From NCBI GenBank assembly GCA_965214835.1, contig CBDCCK010000002.1, forward strand, positions 320,001-384,000: DNA of 64,000 nucleotides. Reading direction: 5' to 3'. This DNA comes from Nitrosopumilaceae archaeon. GTDB taxonomy: Archaea; Thermoproteota; Nitrososphaeria; Nitrososphaerales; Nitrosopumilaceae. Below, in pieces: positions 58,319-63,547 of this stretch. The first letter of the stretch is position 1, and every line of letters begins with the position of its first letter. A program made the translations under genes and the position numbers. The notes under the pieces were generated by a model, which was not told where the DNA came from, made no database searches, and saw only the letters and a list, made by a program, of their open reading frames with translations.

Positions 58319-58991
58319 GACTGCCCGTCCGGTTCTGTGTAAGATTGGTGACCTAGAATGCGGATATTCTCTGAATTGAGATTTTATTTTATGCCTAGAC
58401 AGAATACTTGCTTAGCGAGGCATTCTGGATGATGGTCTTCCACTTGTTGATGCCGTCCACGACAATCAAGGATGCCTCCGCAGGCGTCTTTCCCTCCAGG
58501 CTTCCGTGCTTTTTGGTGTAATTGTAGTAGACCCTCATTCCGTCAAGTATGGCCGTATCCATCTTCTTGAGGCCCCTGAACACCTTCTCGCGGTCTCTGA
58601 TCTCGCCGTTGAGCCTCTCCATCCTGTTGTTGTTGTCCCGGTCTCTTTTTCCTGCCAGGTGGATATGTCTTACGTGATTCGTACCCTTTCCGAATACCCT
58701 CCTTGAGGACTTGGCATATGCCGGCAGGCCGTCCGTGATGAAGTTTCTGGGGCTTTTTCCGGCATGTGATTTTGTCAGTTGTAATAGACTGTCCGCATTG
58801 TGCTGGAACTTGTTGTCTGCCAGGTCGGAGGCCAGCCAGTAGCGCGTATCGTCATCCATCGAGGCGAATAGATAGCACTGCCTGCCGCTGATTTTCACCC
58901 ATACCTCGTCGGCCCGGAACCAGCTGCCGACCCGTGGAACGATTCCGTTGAGGTATGTCGATGTCATCCTGGAATAGTCTCTAACCCAGTT

Positions 58992-60709
58992 AGACCTTAT
59001 GCGTAAACGAAATTAGCGGCGATGCCCCCGGCGCACGGGCTACAAATGAGGCAAGTCAGGGCCGGCGCACGCGCGACTGTACCTTACAACGTTGAAAATA
59101 TTTGATCAAAACCACAACTATTTTCAGACGATTGATTTAGATCCGGGATCCATTCTCGCATAAGAGTAATGGCAAAGTCCGAGACCGAGCAGATACGACT
59201 GCTGAAGAAGAGAATCGAGCAGTACGAGAAGGAGAAGGTACAGGACAGGAAGGAGAAGGCGCGGGACAAAAAGAAGATCAAGAAGTATGAGAAGAGGATC
59301 AAGAGGCACGAGAAGAAGAGCAGGCAGGACAGGAAGGAGAAGGCGCGGGACAGGACGGAGAGGATGCAGTACAGGAAGGAGATCAGAGAGTACGAGAAGA
59401 AGAGCAGGCAGGACGGCAGGAGGCAGGAGCGGGATCAGGAGAGGATAGGGCAGCTGGAACAGCAGCTGGACGCCGAGCGCCGGATGTGGCCCGCAACCTG
59501 GGATGACGACAGGCGCTCCGCGGACAACGCCGCCCTCATGCACAGGCTCGAGGTGCTCGATGACATAATCGGTGGCGGGTCCCTGCAGCCCACCACGTCG
59601 ATGAACCTCCGCCAGTTTGACTACATATATGACCGGTTTACGAAGCTTGCCAAAAAGCACACAGAAGGCCCCCTGTTCTCAGAAGACGAGGACAACTTGC
59701 CCGGAAACCGGTGCAAGCTGTCCTACCGCCACGCCCTGCTGATGTCGCTGATGCGCAAGTACGGAAACCCGACACAGGAGCAGCTTGCGGCATTCTTTGG
59801 CATAGACCAGAGCACCGTATGCAGGTACCTCAGGTATTGCGACATGATATTCACCAAGATACTGCCCACGCCGGACGCCGTATCGCGAAAGATACAAAAC
59901 GCCCGCACGATCAAGGAAGTCAAGAAGATCGTCCCGGATCTGACCGTGATTGTAGACGGCACGCACATCGACATACAGCGCCCCACAGACAAGGAGCCAA
60001 GAAAGGAGGCATACTCTGGCAAGAAGAAGAGCTTTACGCGCAACACCCAGGTGATTGCCGACAAGAAGGGACTGGCGATGTATGCAAGCAAGTCGGCGCC
60101 CGGAAGCACGCACGACCTCACCATGATAAAGAACAACCCACCGGATCTGGGAATCCTGACTGCCAGGATGCGCAGCAACAGAAAGCACCCCGAGGACGAG
60201 AAGGTAAAGATGTTCTCTGATCTGGGATACATGGGAATCGAGGAGGTGTATCCCGGGGCCACATCCGTGCAGCCCGACAAGAAGCCAAGGAAAGGCAAGC
60301 TTACAAAGAAACAGAAAGCGCAGAACAGGAGGATAAGCAGCAAGAGGGTGACAGTAGAGCACGCCATAGGACGGATAAAGCAGTACAAGCGGATGCGTGA
60401 TCCGTACGACGGGACCGCCGAGGAGTTCGACAGGGAGTTCCAGGTGACGGCCGGGCTTGCCAACTTTAGGCTGCTGTGGGACAAGCGGAACAAGAAGCTC
60501 ATGCATGGGTTCTGATACCACGATACGGAGCGCATTGCGGCGCCACACGATGCCGCACTATACTGTAGTTTTTACCAGCTGTAATGGCTCGTAGCTGCAC
60601 TATATACGGACTCTGCCGCCCTCATACACGTCATGTGATGCCGTCAGCCTTGCATGTATGGCCGGCCACCGTCGGAATATTTCGATCCGGTCGATTACGC
60701 ATAAGGTCT
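58992..60709 (+). mobile_element. IS5-superfamily (ISL2/DDE_Tnp_4-type) insertion sequence, intact
   Basis: 19-bp TIRs AGACCTTATGCGTAA(A/T)CGA; 3-bp TSD GTT. Confidence 0.93.
59169..60515 (+). CDS. IS5/ISL2-type transposase with charged coiled-coil N-terminus
   Basis: HTH LAAFFGIDQSTVCR, VDGT, YSGKKK, GSTHD, DLGY, RVTVEHAIGRIK. Confidence 0.92.
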   Translation: MAKSETEQIRLLKKRIEQYEKEKVQDRKEKARDKKKIKKYEKRIKRHEKKSRQDRKEKARDRTERMQYRKEIREYEKKSRQDGRRQERDQERIGQLEQQLDAERRMWPATWDDDRRSADNAALMHRLEVLDDIIGGGSLQPTTSMNLRQFDYIYDRFTKLAKKHTEGPLFSEDEDNLPGNRCKLSYRHALLMSLMRKYGNPTQEQLAAFFGIDQSTVCRYLRYCDMIFTKILPTPDAVSRKIQNARTIKEVKKIVPDLTVIVDGTHIDIQRPTDKEPRKEAYSGKKKSFTRNTQVIADKKGLAMYASKSAPGSTHDLTMIKNNPPDLGILTARMRSNRKHPEDEKVKMFSDLGYMGIEEVYPGATSVQPDKKPRKGKLTKKQKAQNRRISSKRVTVEHAIGRIKQYKRMRDPYDGTAEEFDREFQVTAGLANFRLLWDKRNKKLMHGF

Positions 60710-61278
60710 GTTGTATACCGTCTTGTGGCTTACACTGATTCCAAGCATCTCGTAATGGTTGGAGATGTCACGGACGCTCATCCCCGTATAATACATCTGC
60801 AACGCGCCCGTTATGATGGATTCGTCAAACCTCCTGTTTTCGAATCCAAAGTTTGCAGTAAACCTTCTCTTACAGTCTTTACACTTGAACATCTGCATTG
60901 TAGAGCTTTTGTTCTTCTTTAATCCCTTCCTGACGATGTTGCCAGAATCGCAGAACTTGCACAGGTTCAGCCTTGACCTTTCAATGATTCTAAACCCGTC
61001 GTGTCCGAACACGTTTCTTCTGACATACTCCAGTATTACCTTGATGTGCTTGCAGTCCGATTTTCTGCTCCGGTGGTCCGGACACTCACAGACAAGCCCG
61101 CTGCCCGTCCTAGATACGGTATAGAACTTGGATGGATCTGACTGGGATCTGACCCTGAAATCATTCGTACCAATGATCTGGGTGGCGTGACCCGGAGTCT
61201 CCATGATCTGTTTTGCACGTCGGTCTCTTGCGTTCATTCACATCCCTCCTCGAAAATTAATATAGAACAAAAAAGAAG

Positions 61279-61363
61279 CGGTGAGTGTGGGATTCGAACC
61301 CACGAAGGCTTTCCACCTTGCAGGTCATAAGCCTGCCACTCTAACCAACTAAGTGAACTCACC
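61279..61363 (-). tRNA. Class II (long variable arm) tRNA with UAU anticodon
   Basis: Acceptor GGTGAGT/ACTCACC plus G73; anticodon arm GCAGG-CTTATGA-CCTGC; variable arm AAGGT-GGAAA-GCCTT; T-arm GTGGG-TTCGAAT-CCCAC; upstream TATA-like box and downstream T-run. Confidence 0.85.
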
Positions 61364-61450
61364 ATGTATTAGATTAACAGTATGGTTATTTATTAGTTGT
61401 GGTTAACAGATCGGTTAAGATTTATATTAGCAACGTTGCTTCAAAACAAC

Positions 61451-61636
61451 ATGACACGCTACAAAAAGGACGCAAGGGAGTTTGATGTGAGCCTCACCAA
61501 AAGCAGGAACAGGGACGGATCTGAAAGCCTGATCTGCCGCGTACCGAGAATCATAGTAGAAACACTGGGCGAGCCAAACAGCCTGAAATTCCTTATCAAG
61601 AGCAAGAACATAGTTGTGACCGCAGGTGAGAAGTGA
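61451..61636 (+). CDS. AbrB/MazE-like small DNA-binding protein
   Basis: FDVSL...SLICRVPRIIVETLG...LKF....IVV swapped-hairpin pattern; divergent from tRNA/transposase. Confidence 0.65.
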   Translation: MTRYKKDAREFDVSLTKSRNRDGSESLICRVPRIIVETLGEPNSLKFLIKSKNIVVTAGEK

Positions 61637-61742
61637 TGTTACCGTACCATAAGGAAGCCAACAGTAGAGATTTTGGGCAATCCAAACCAACTCGTGTTCA
61701 AACTTGTAAAAAAGAAGGCAATCATAAAAGGTGTAATCTGAA
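61636..61742 (+). pseudogene. Degenerate second copy of the AbrB-like C-terminal half
   Basis: RTIRKPTVEILGNPNQLVFKLVKKKAII aligns with RVPRIIVETLGEPNSLKFLIKSKNIVV. Confidence 0.5.
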
Positions 61743-62532
61743 ATGAAAAAGTCCCTCCAACGGATATACAATACCGACTGTATGGATTTTATGAGTAGTT
61801 ATTCCGGTAAAAAATTCGATGTTATCGTCACATCCCCACCATACAACGTAAACAAGAAATACAACATCTATTTGGATAACCTGACCCTAGTAGACTACCT
61901 AAAGTGGGTGGAGTTGTGGGGGGGGGCTCTATGACCTACTTTCAGACAACGGATCATTTTTCCTAAACATAGGCTACACTGCTAAAAACCCGAACATACC
62001 GTTTGATGTCCAGCGCGTGCTGTCAAAGTACTTCAAGACGCAGAACATATTCCACTGGATAAAGTCAATATCAATACCTGAGTCAAACATATCCGTCGGA
62101 CATTTCAAGCCCATTAATACGCCACGTTTCGTAAACCAGTGCCATGAATTTGTGTTTCATTTCACCAAAAATGGTAACGTGCCTCTTGACAAACTGTCGA
62201 TAGGAGTTTCGTATGCAGATAAAAGTAACATAACGCGCTGGAACCACGGAAACACAAAACGTGACAGGGGAAACACGTGGTTCATACCATATGAGACAAA
62301 AAATGGGAATATGAGACATCCTTGTGAGTTTCCGGTCAAGCTCCCTGAAATGTGCATCATGCTACATGGCGTAAAAAACGACCTTTTTGTCTATGATCCG
62401 TTTATGGGAATCGGCTCCACGGCCATTGCGTGTAAAAGACTTGGTGTAAGGTGTGTCGGCACCGAGATAGATCCAGAGTATGTGGATGTTGCAAACCAAA
62501 GACTTGAAAACGAGGTGTTGATTTGTCAGTAG
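61743..62532 (+). CDS. Beta-class amino (N4-C/N6-A) DNA methyltransferase, +1 frameshift in G9 tract
   Basis: Motif IV TSPPY in 61743-61934; [14 protein letters not shown], motif [10 protein letters not shown] in the next frame; G9 at 61918-61926. Confidence 0.88.
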
Positions 62533-63074
62533 AGTTTCATAGTCTCATAAAGGACACATGCGATAAAACGGTACTGCAAACGCAAAAGAGCCATCCAATA
62601 CTGAAGATACTATCAAATGGTCTTAACATAATTCTACGAAAATCAAAATACACAAGGTATGAAGACAGGCGTATAAACGATTTAGGCAAGTCGTTGGAAC
62701 AGGAGATAAAGGACATAATAACACACGATAATGACATCAAGCTTATTCCATACAGTCAACACCTGGGTTATCCTGATCTACGTGTCCAAATACATGGTAA
62801 AGTCGTGTTTATTGAGATAAAGACAACGTCAAAAGAAGAAAATTTTGATTCAACTCAACGTGTGTTTTATTACACAAATGGCAACAAGATAAGCGACGAC
62901 GGATACCACCTACTCATACAGCTGTTCTTGGAAGCATCACCATCAAATCCAAATTCCTACATTTTCAAGAAGTGGAGGATAAGGGACCTGTATTCTCTAA
63001 GTGTAAGCCTAAAGCGAGAATACAATGCGAGCTATAGAGATTTAAACAACTTACCCGTATTGTGTGGTTCCTAG
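62523..63074 (+). CDS. Putative type II restriction endonuclease (PD-(D/E)xK)
   Basis: GYPDL...FIEIKT catalytic motif; overlaps the MTase stop; AT-rich. Confidence 0.75.
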
Positions 63075-63075
63075 A

Positions 63076-63267
63076 ATGGAATGTAACAACCGCTGTGAAA
63101 AATTCAGAAAAGCTAGGAGATACAACACACAGGATTCCAAATACTGTGTTAATTGTGACATCTTTCTAGAAACCAAAAACAACCGCTGTCCTTGTTGCAA
63201 CAATCAATTGCGAACCGGGCCGGCAAACTCAAAAAACAGAAAAAACCACCGTAAAAAATCCGAATAA
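63076..63267 (+). CDS. Small Cys-rich Zn-finger protein
   Basis: C...C, YCVNC, RCPCC..QLRT with basic tail. Confidence 0.7.
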   Translation: MECNNRCEKFRKARRYNTQDSKYCVNCDIFLETKNNRCPCCNNQLRTGPANSKNRKNHRKKSE

Positions 63268-63547
63268 ATGGCGCTGTCCAGCCACAAAAATTCATCTCAA
63301 AGATCTACACCCTAGGTGCCTAAAACTACACAAAACAGCCCGAAAGGTCAGATTGCCCAGGTATTCCTGATCCAAGCAAAATTCCATATCACCAAGATTG
63401 CACAGAACCGCCCGTCCTATACTTTTAATATGAGATATGAGAATACTAAGCAGGTGGGTAAAGTCTGTTGAGCAATCAATAGGATCTTGACCGAAACAAT
63501 GACGTCTGTTCGGACAGATAGGAAGGAGTAGGTCAAGAGTCACCATT

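Follow-up and report, generated by a model that had tools for sequence, protein, structure and literature searches.

A serine-type tRNA gene with the anticodon UAU carried inside an IS6-family transposon of a Nitrosopumilaceae archaeon

Two kinds of natural tRNA whose anticodon does not match the body come closest to the gene described here. The allo-tRNAs were reported from bacteria of soils and sediments (Mukai et al. 2017, PMC5389517), and in the available text of that report they combine a serine-type body and a long variable arm with non-serine anticodons, the UAU group being the commonest. The nev-tRNAs of nematodes (Hamashima et al. 2012, PMC3333845; see also PMC4300185, both in their available text) are class II tRNAs with anticodons, Ile (UAU) among them, that are mismatched to the body. 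We describe here a class II tRNA gene with the anticodon UAU and a body of the serine type. It lies in a 64-kb stretch of contig CBDCCK010000002.1 of a Nitrosopumilaceae archaeon (the window, to which all coordinates without a prefix refer), where it is internal cargo of an IS6-family transposon, and it belongs to a family of IS6-associated tRNA genes, called simply the family below.

The likeness to the allo-tRNAs extends to the genomic setting. According to the available text of PMC5389517, allo-tRNA genes are found near toxin-antitoxin systems and one overlaps a transposon-related open reading frame (ORF); the family is likewise borne by mobile DNA. The same text expresses doubt that the UAU group of allo-tRNAs is used in translation. 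It gives the division of the 12 bp of acceptor and T stem in allo-tRNAs as 8/4 or 9/3, whereas the family has the standard 7/5, kept by covariation. Because the 8/4 or 9/3 stems are missing, we do not count the family among the allo-tRNAs. In addition, the allo-tRNAs of that report are bacterial and correspond to 35 codons, whereas the family is archaeal, has NAN anticodons in 22/22 genes and sits inside IS6 transposons with target duplications. For the nev-tRNAs, the available text of PMC3333845 reports weak expression, charging that follows the body and misreading in vitro. As described there, they are derived from tRNA-Leu, charged with leucine and encoded in eukaryotic nuclear genomes, with no transposon cargo mentioned, whereas the family is of the serine type by model score and G73. 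The tRNA-Pro variants of the Streptomyces group also show a natural mismatch of anticodon and amino acid, for which regulated mistranslation has been proposed (PMC10404621, available text). In that text they are bacterial, concern another amino acid system and have a dedicated synthetase, whereas no extra synthetase gene was seen with Pfam in the window element.

According to the available part of a 2019 survey (PMC6563490), no transposon with passenger genes had been detected in archaea, thaumarchaea included. Our search of the full-text literature, with supplementary tables outside its scope, found no archaeal precedent for a tRNA of this kind. In the CTG-clade yeasts, tRNA-Ser(CAG) bears a leucine anticodon on a serine body, together with G37 and an unusual residue 33. 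In the family, C33 occurs in 3/22 genes. The yeast tRNA represents a fixed change of the nuclear code in a eukaryote, whereas the family consists of mobile accessory genes.

The window has a single tRNA gene according to ARAGORN, which placed it on the minus strand at 61278-61363 and called it Ile (tat). The Rfam tRNA model RF00005 matched 61279-61363 on the same strand over its full length (model positions 1-71 of 71), with 59.6 bits against a gathering score of 29 and an E value of 2.3e-10. The gene is 85 nt long and encodes no CCA. Its acceptor stem GGUGAGU/ACUCACC has 7/7 Watson-Crick pairs, and the D arm reads ACUU-AGUUGGUUA-GAGU, with one U.G in the ACUU/GAGU stem. The anticodon stem GCAGG/CCUGC bears the loop CUUAUGA (U33, anticodon UAU, G37, A38), the variable region of 16 nt holds a helix of 4-5 bp (AAGGU/GCCUU), the T arm is GUGGG-UUCGAAU-CCCAC, and the discriminator is G73 (G at 61279). 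When the tRNA strand was folded in isolation, the five-helix cloverleaf was the centroid structure, and the minimum free energy of -35.1 kcal/mol (z -3.6) was equalled by 0/200 shuffles. We found no defect in the gene: all stems are paired and the bases of the tertiary interactions are kept.

Upstream of the gene, a T/A-rich box at -32 to -23 is likely its archaeal TATA box, and the block upstream of the tRNA is nearly identical in two other family loci (L181 and L169). On the other side a T6 run begins 5 nt past G73. This oligo-T run is likely a terminator, and the box TTCTATATTAATTTTC that follows it is likely the TATA box of the transposase gene. The box is aligned in 4/5 loci, the fifth having diverged to TCTCTATTTTAACTTTT, and is also present 3' of the tRNA in L185, L169, L164 and L187. 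An intact 85-nt cloverleaf with G73, G37, UAU and a variable arm, preceded by a TATA-like box and followed by an oligo-T run, had been reported in a preliminary description of the window, and every part of that account is confirmed; the strand, which it did not give, is minus. A second study provides contigs (runs X3 and X5) that span 61317-63497 with 0 differences from the window, and this agreement means that UAU is not a read error. The X1 contig, possibly the source, spans 61007-61925, again with 0 differences.

Two other readings of parts of the gene were rejected. The variable arm might have been a spliced intron, as the preliminary description had considered, but its helix covaries at 4/4 pairs, its length is that of host tRNA-Ser, and no bulge-helix-bulge could be drawn around it. 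The T arm was also considered as an end of the insertion sequence (IS); the two share the start GGTTC and, by eye, agree at no base past those 5.

As stand-ins for isotype models we used home-made covariance models of 14 canonical tRNA-Ser, from the host and its order, and of 5 tRNA-Leu. The preliminary description had called the body Ser/Leu-type; the first half of that label stands and the second falls, the window tRNA scoring 72.9 bits with the Ser and 45.4 with the Leu model. For comparison, with the training sequences themselves as the yardstick, the Ser model gives 81.9-101.8 bits to canonical tRNA-Ser and 57.2-69.5 to canonical tRNA-Leu, and the Leu model gives 105-113 bits to true tRNA-Leu. 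The Ser score exceeded the Leu score in 13/13 family genes tested, although by just 6-8 bits in the subgroup with the anticodons GAG and CAG. The variable region of 16 nt equals in length those of host tRNA-Ser GCU and UGA, and the window tRNA carries G73, G30:C40 and a long variable region together. G73, and after it G30:C40, are strong elements for the seryl-tRNA synthetase (SerRS) of bacterial type and of archaea, and G73 blocks the leucyl enzyme in Haloferax. The pair G30:C40, described as a secondary identity element of tRNA-Ser in the available text of PMC9976931, is shared by the window gene and the L185 gene, whereas others of the family have C:G or A:U. A Ser anticodon (NGA or GCU) is absent from the window gene, which has UAU. 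Compared with archaeal tRNA-Ile2 (class I, CAU, A37, A73) it is class II, with UAU, G37 and G73, and compared with archaeal tRNA-Leu it has G73 and a Ser-type D arm rather than A73 and a D arm with a 3-bp stem and long loop. Judged by these features, the body is Ser-type, neither Leu-type nor Ile-type.

That the gene is transposon-borne, as had been proposed, is now established by the ends of the element. Inverted ends, and outside them an 8-bp direct repeat that directly adjoins both, bracket 58331-63409, and the element must therefore have transposed as a unit. An 8-bp target duplication is typical of the IS6 family. The window element resembles that family (IS26/IS240) in its DDE_Tnp_IS240 transposase, its short terminal inverted repeats and its 8-bp target duplication. 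Classical IS6 elements encode the transposase alone, whereas the clade found here adds a small divergent gene, and a sub-clade of it adds the tRNA and often a DNA methylase. The far inverted repeat was located by motif search; the 360-700 nt that precede the transposase hold no inverted partner of the transposase-proximal end, the true far end lying 2 kb beyond.

The family was assembled with a DNA query in relatives, a covariance model built from five members, a pattern scan of a genome collection and a mismatch-tolerant pattern over 401 genomes of Nitrosopumilaceae, which together gave 13 genes first and 9 later. It now comprises 22 IS6-associated tRNA genes, from 16 genomes that represent six or more genera of Nitrosopumilaceae; because the searches were not exhaustive, 22 is a lower bound on the family size. 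In the genome-collection scan 7/42 stretches were family loci, the others being chance matches in bacteria and one other archaeon. A metagenome scan returned 17 stretches with no family tRNA (its sole match to the family model was 74 nt long, with 37.4 bits), and a viral scan returned 0 stretches. The window tRNA has the top score on the family covariance model, 91.2 bits.

The anticodons of the family are GAU (8 genes), GAA (7), GAG (3), CAG (2) and UAU (2). Position 35 is A in 22/22 genes while positions 34 and 36 vary; because the members are kin, we give this count as a description and attach no probability to it. The second UAU gene (L185) is in another genus. It is identical to the window gene in the loop CUUAUGA and in the acceptor stem, and differs from it in the variable arm and, with compensation, in the anticodon stem. 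The preliminary description had allowed that UAU might be a private mutation or read error, or that all homologs might have Leu or Ser anticodons. The first is contradicted by the gene in L185 together with the identical contigs, and the second by the family counts, in which Ser anticodons make up 0/22, Leu anticodons 5/22 and Ile anticodons 10/22. It had also asked whether UAU is conserved among homologs beside IS6 transposases: a second UAU gene exists, but the conserved feature is A35 (22/22) and not UAU (2/22).

Two further family tRNAs occur in the host genome. One, at C2:2806142-2806226, has the anticodon GAA and the same surroundings of small gene, methylase fragment and IS6 transposase, the locus being about 74% identical to that of the window. 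The transposase of this sister element (L002:4278-5450; G000:C2:2806277 onward) has an in-frame TAG where the window copy has CAG, and is cut off by another IS past the TAG. The other, at C2:702318-702405, has GAA in an anticodon loop of 6 nt.

The best matches of the family model outside the family are mostly tRNA-Ser(GCU), 24/29 loci scanned being called Ser(gct). One family loop, CUGAUAA, differs from the local tRNA-Ser(GCU) loop CUGCUAA by the replacement of C35 with A, which fits descent from tRNA-Ser(GCU) by an anticodon mutation; CUGAUAA is also the loop of host tRNA-Ile(GAU). The simplest history suggested by these sequences is that the anticodon of a tRNA-Ser(GCU) mutated to GAU and that drift at positions 34 and 36 followed. 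The transposases beside family tRNAs are only 36-44% identical in protein sequence; the tRNA has thus been retained while its carriers diverged deeply.

The tRNA is oriented like the transposase and placed between it and the small gene, with the transposase directly downstream in 9/22 loci and the small gene directly upstream in 15/22. The distance from tRNA to transposase ATG is 41 nt in the window copy and 50 nt in the C2:2806142 copy. Complete ends were found at L093, with inverted repeats matching at 29/30 positions and an 8-bp duplication, TCATATCA; inverted repeats without a duplication are present at L105 (30/30) and L096. At L032, L060, L077 and L185 the tRNA is present without a transposase. 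A methylase is found in 6 of the first 13 loci and a nuclease-like ORF in the window locus alone, and on these counts we rejected a tie of the tRNA to restriction-modification genes. No anticodon nuclease or PIN-type toxin was seen beside any locus compared. Some members are degenerate: the L029 gene has acceptor mismatches, the C2:702318 gene has the 6-nt loop, and the third gene of L182 is short of part of the D loop. L182 (G672) is an array of three GAU family genes within 1.2 kb (1496-1581, 2301-2383 and 2630-2717), where tblastn found no small gene or transposase.

Covariation argues that selection maintains the family as tRNA. In an alignment of the first 13 genes, 97.5% of 325 cells were paired, compared with 76.7% in shuffles, of which 0/500 reached the observed value; fitting the alignment to the model biases it towards the structure, but the margin is large, and compensated stems can be seen directly in the unaligned genes. 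Changes on both sides were seen in 16/25 pairs, including 4/4 pairs of the variable arm, and controls with slid partners were 35-48% paired. The cloverleaf and its variable arm are thus held by compensatory changes. Among the same 13 genes, 12 have a 7-nt anticodon loop, 11 have U33 and 12 have a purine at position 37, and A38 is present in 12/12 of those with a 7-nt loop. U8, A14, the GG of the D loop and the T-loop sequence UUCRANU are kept in the family. In five family genes the canonical 37/38 position holds an insert. For the three intact GAA genes a bulge-helix-bulge with a 4-bp helix and two 3-nt bulges could be drawn by hand, and removal of the insert would yield CUGAAGA, the loop of host tRNA-Phe.

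The host genome (3.22 Mb, 52.6% GC) encodes an archaeal AmoA (384 bits) and TiaS (110.9 bits), and has three CAU tRNA genes. By this gene content the host is an ammonia-oxidising archaeon that reads AUA by the usual archaeal route of CAU tRNA and TiaS, and the tRNA-Ile(CAU) that the preliminary description expected is thus accounted for. ATA is common in the host, at 34.6% of Ile codons or 21.9 per 1000 in a crude gene set of 523 ORFs of at least 400 aa. The canonical class II tRNA set is complete, with tRNA-Ser genes for GCU, UGA, CGA and GGA (with an intron) and tRNA-Leu genes for GAG, CAG, UAG, CAA (with an intron) and UAA (with two). We had considered that the host has no tRNA-Leu(UAA), which ARAGORN, even with its intron search, and Rfam both overlooked. 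This was rejected when the gene was located at about C2:461478-461600(-), with one intron in the D-arm region and one after position 37.

Features of the transposon are collected in Table 1. The copy in the window is decayed. Its transposase is split by a nested IS of 1.72 kb, the N and C parts being contiguous in other copies in the genome (tblastn). The nested IS has 16 other near-full-length copies in the genome at ≥98% identity, a sign of a recent burst. Contig joints that skip it could stem from other IS6 copies and were not used. Pfam found no SWIM domain in the transposase at E 0.01. The methylase has its N part at 61743-61934 and a C part open from 61903 (listed from 62017). The frame changes where nine consecutive G stand, at about 61917-61925; this run is of equal length in independent contigs and may be a phase-variable tract. 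The 183-aa ORF at 62523-63074 has no Pfam match; its 18 Ile codons are ATA 13, ATT 4 and ATC 1, exactly the approximate hand count given earlier for this ORF, and the methylase C part has ATA in 9/14. The transposon adjoins rpl30e-nusA-rps12-rps7, the four names being given by eye from translations. Just outside it, 63452-63545(+) scores 52.2 bits with the DUF3800-X RNA motif of Rfam, whose gathering score is 38.2, and lies within a repeat that has four other copies in the genome.

Table 1. Features of the IS6-family transposon and its tRNA gene, in window coordinates
Feature	Position	Strand	Basis or remark
Target-site duplication, left copy GCCCGTCC	58323..58330	.	identical to 63410-63417
Terminal inverted repeat (GGTTCTGTGTAAGATTGGTGAC), beside transposase stop codon	58331..58352	+	other IS6 copies in genome align from 58328-58331
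IS6-family transposase, C-terminal part (DDE domain)	58395..58967	-	Pfam PF13610 DDE_Tnp_IS240, E 4.6e-15
Nested multi-copy IS splitting the IS6 transposase	58990..60709	+	DDE_Tnp_4 ORF 59169-60515; 19-nt inverted ends 58992-59010 and 60691-60709
IS6-family transposase, N-terminal part	60695..61237	-	ORF; CxC...CxH (SWIM-like) motif by eye
tRNA-transposase spacer: oligo-T run, then box TTCTATATTAATTTTC	61238..61278	-	sequence and locus alignment
Class II tRNA gene, Ser-type by model score, anticodon UAU	61279..61363	-	anticodon at 61327-61329; ARAGORN, Rfam, Ser/Leu models, fold
T/A-rich box TAATAAATAA, -32 to -23 of tRNA	61386..61395	-	read from sequence
Small gene (61 aa), divergent from tRNA	61451..61636	+	usual accessory gene of this IS6 clade; fold prediction AbrB/MazE/VapB-like, a lead
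Small gene, partial second copy	61649..61729	+	G000:C2:381649-381729, E 3.5e-4
N4/N6 DNA methyltransferase, two frames	61743..62532	+	Pfam PF01555 positions 2-36 and 72-220
ORF (183 aa) with PD...EIK motif	62523..63074	+	candidate PD-(D/E)xK restriction endonuclease, motif by eye; GC 38%
Cys-rich ORF (67 aa), possible zinc ribbon	63064..63267	+	sequence
Second terminal inverted repeat, reverse complement GGTTCTGTGCAATCTTGGTGAT	63388..63409	-	18/22 identical to left; 63300-63410 matches IS6 ends elsewhere in genome
Target-site duplication, right copy GCCCGTCC	63410..63417	.	sequence

The small gene upstream of the tRNA is found in 77/401 genomes of the order, often in several copies. The unpublished genomes G102 and G181 are among the 77; no tRNA count uses them. 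The small gene is the divergent partner of an IS6 transposase in 20/29 loci, mostly without a tRNA between the two, and in the basic form at G000:C2:1129277-1129517 the genes are 85 nt apart with no tRNA. Because the basic IS of the clade has just these two protein genes, the tRNA can be regarded as an insert in the control region of the IS. The proposal that small gene and tRNA form a dedicated pair was downgraded on the same grounds, the small gene being the normal partner of the transposase. Among 33 members of the small protein there was no meaningful Pfam match, and there was no sequence match in the PDB. The AlphaFold (AF2) model has a pLDDT of 86.2. In Foldseek, ranks 1-4 and 7 were MazE or AbrB and ranks 17, 18, 29 and 37 VapB, with 0 matches at E 0.001, and the language-model (Atlas) neighbour was named AbrB/MazE/SpoVT at 0.88, under the 0.9 line. 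As a lead only, these predictions point to an AbrB/MazE-like DNA binder, a lead that partly rests on the L076 row, from G102, in the small-protein alignment A8.

The host genome has other odd tRNA-like genes. Four are 72-nt class I genes, at G000:C2:66616-66687(-), 2234423-2234494(+), 2756709-2756780(+) and 3019690-3019761(+) (L155, L158, L159 and L160), with the acceptor stem GGGCCCC/GGGGUCC (G3:U70), A73 and the anticodons AAG, GAA, AAG and GAG (Leu/Phe). G3:U70 is the mark of alanine identity, and the host tRNA-Ala genes share G3:U70 and A73 with these four. Upstream of each lies a conserved block of ~110 nt in which its own anticodon arm is repeated, the two copies changing in step; two of the genes are followed by a SAM-methyltransferase-like ORF. 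A search of relatives for these alanine-type genes found a degenerate A3:U70 copy with mismatches in G036, of another genus, and a partial match in a genome of the same genus. If real, these genes would mean that both anticodon-blind synthetases are represented among the extra tRNAs of the genome.

Further cases are more scattered. A class II gene at L003:4335-4419(-) (G000:C2:148334-148418), with discriminator G and the anticodon CCU (Arg), scores 64.3 bits on the Ser and 46.6 on the Leu model and adjoins a large DNA-methylase-like ORF (named by eye). Another at L004:4324-4410(+) (G000:C2:914323-914409), with discriminator G and the anticodon CAG, scores 42.8 and 31.9 bits and lies between IS genes. 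A five-copy repeat starting gttggcgttggg (G000:C2:182875-182969, 1090321-1090417, 1824008-1824096, 1826707-1826802 and 2887467-2887563) is taken for tRNA by ARAGORN and scores 30-48 bits with Rfam, above the tRNA threshold; its appearance is that of a repeated, tRNA-like element and not of a tRNA that decodes. The gene at G000:C2:176244-176317(+) is tRNA-like with an apparent 8-nt anticodon loop and has no ARAGORN isotype, and a copy of the initiator tRNA with a D-region insertion (G000:C2:65293-65382(-)) adjoins one of the alanine-type odd tRNAs.

Among the functions that can be proposed for the window tRNA, we tentatively regard low-level misreading of AUA as serine by a serylated tRNA as the most likely. 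The gene would be transcribed from its own TATA-like box, with transcription stopped at the oligo-T run, and the product matured like an ordinary tRNA. SerRS, which is blind to the anticodon, would key on G73, the long variable arm and G30:C40 and charge it with serine, perhaps in competition with the isoleucyl enzyme (IleRS), for which the anticodon would be the cue. A low level of Ser would then be inserted at AUA, where the tRNA would compete with the agmatidine-bearing tRNA-Ile2 of the host, and the transposon would thereby carry a built-in ambiguous decoder. Candidate benefits to the element would be element-linked stress or toxicity, or proteome diversification. Such reading would be weak, because A37 is lacking, agmatidine tRNA-Ile2 competes and the acceptor stem is unlike that of host tRNA-Ser, and since ATA usage is high in the host, Ser insertion, if it occurs, must be low or tightly controlled. 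Several observations weigh against misreading. With ATA at 34.6% of host Ile codons, efficient Ser insertion would cost much. G37 in place of A37 (N6-threonylcarbamoyladenosine, t6A), C33 in 3/22 genes and one 6-nt loop point to weak decoders. The pairs C2:G71 and G10:C25 are present in 24/24 canonical tRNA-Ser read from the order, whereas the family has G2:C71 (12/13) and mostly A10:U25, and the window gene has both; departing thus from the local canonical tRNA-Ser, the family tRNA may be a poor substrate of SerRS. The discriminator is G73 in 11 of the first 13 genes and A73 in two, by the same rules a Leu-type discriminator, and the isotype models are small, with their own training sequences as yardstick. 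Finally, the transposon copy itself is decayed, the transposase being split and the methylase frameshifted.

This decay suggests that the tRNA in the window might be a still-intact but non-functional leftover of a dead transposon, its UAU without present consequence. We consider this unlikely, and it concerns the window copy alone and is compatible with any of the other explanations. The partial duplication of the small gene agrees with it, beside the split transposase and the frameshift at the G9 run, as do the visibly degenerate members elsewhere (L029, C2:702318, the third L182 gene); yet the tRNA is defect-free, with a promoter-like box and a terminator-like run, scores highest on the family model (91.2 bits) and has the same anticodon loop in a second genus. 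It is also possible, if rather doubtful, that the family RNA is tRNA-shaped but has a non-decoding job in the transposon, for example as a processing or insulating unit before the transposase mRNA, or as an RNA partner of the small AbrB/MazE-like protein in the control of transposition. Its fixed position and orientation between small gene (15/22 upstream) and transposase (9/22 downstream) and its insertion in the control region of a basic two-gene IS (20/29 small-gene loci) would be explained in this way. However, the oligo-T run and the separate TATA-like box before the transposase suggest separate transcripts in the window copy, a processing signal needs no covarying anticodon and variable arms, invariant A35, kept A38 or spliceable intron, and the tRNA persists without a transposase at four loci (L032, L060, L077 and L185). 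The preliminary description had drawn attention to the ATA-rich nuclease-like ORF beside the tRNA, which would suit a true isoleucine tRNA in an odd body, charged by IleRS through its anticodon and serving as an extra AUA reader for ATA-rich cargo (13/18 Ile codons in that ORF, 9/14 in the methylase C part). The count is correct, but the association is no family feature: the ORF is unmatched at the other loci compared, and sister elements have other anticodons, Phe and Leu among them. Ile anticodons in 10/22 genes and the loop CUGAUAA, identical to that of host tRNA-Ile(GAU), speak for such a tRNA, which we nevertheless hold to be improbable: G73, G37 and the long variable arm stand against the A73, A37 and short variable loop of archaeal tRNA-Ile, TiaS and tRNA-Ile2 are already present in the host, and ATA is a codon that it uses often. 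The least probable explanation, and a very improbable one, is that the mobile element bears the tRNA as a decoy or spare target, to be cut by the tRNA nuclease of a defence or toxin system. This reading could draw on the mobile context with restriction-modification genes nearby, on the invariant A35 amid varying positions 34 and 36, which could mark a nuclease recognition site, and on the second set of anticodon-mismatched tRNAs in the same genome, but no anticodon nuclease or PIN-type toxin was seen beside the compared loci.

Natural tRNAs in which body and anticodon are mismatched are rare, and they are the clearest handle on the origin and tolerance of ambiguity in the genetic code. Those known so far come from bacteria (allo-tRNAs, tRNA-Pro variants) or eukaryotes (nev-tRNAs, CTG-clade yeasts), and this one would be archaeal. 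It has traits that should make it useful: a standard cloverleaf, a traceable path (C35 to A, then changes at positions 34 and 36 only) and a defined place in a mobile transposon. The analysis also documents IS6 transposons that carry cargo (tRNA, DNA methylase and candidate nuclease) in the Nitrosopumilaceae. Serine misreading of AUA could be extended, speculatively and with a low likelihood, to a mismatched tRNA that acts as a toxic or proteome-diversifying decoder and is checked by the MazE/AbrB-like repressor of the element. If so, the tRNA would be the active part of a module resembling a toxin-antitoxin system or a stress switch. Mis-charging tRNAs that draw on both anticodon-blind synthetases may be a recurrent tool of archaeal mobile elements.

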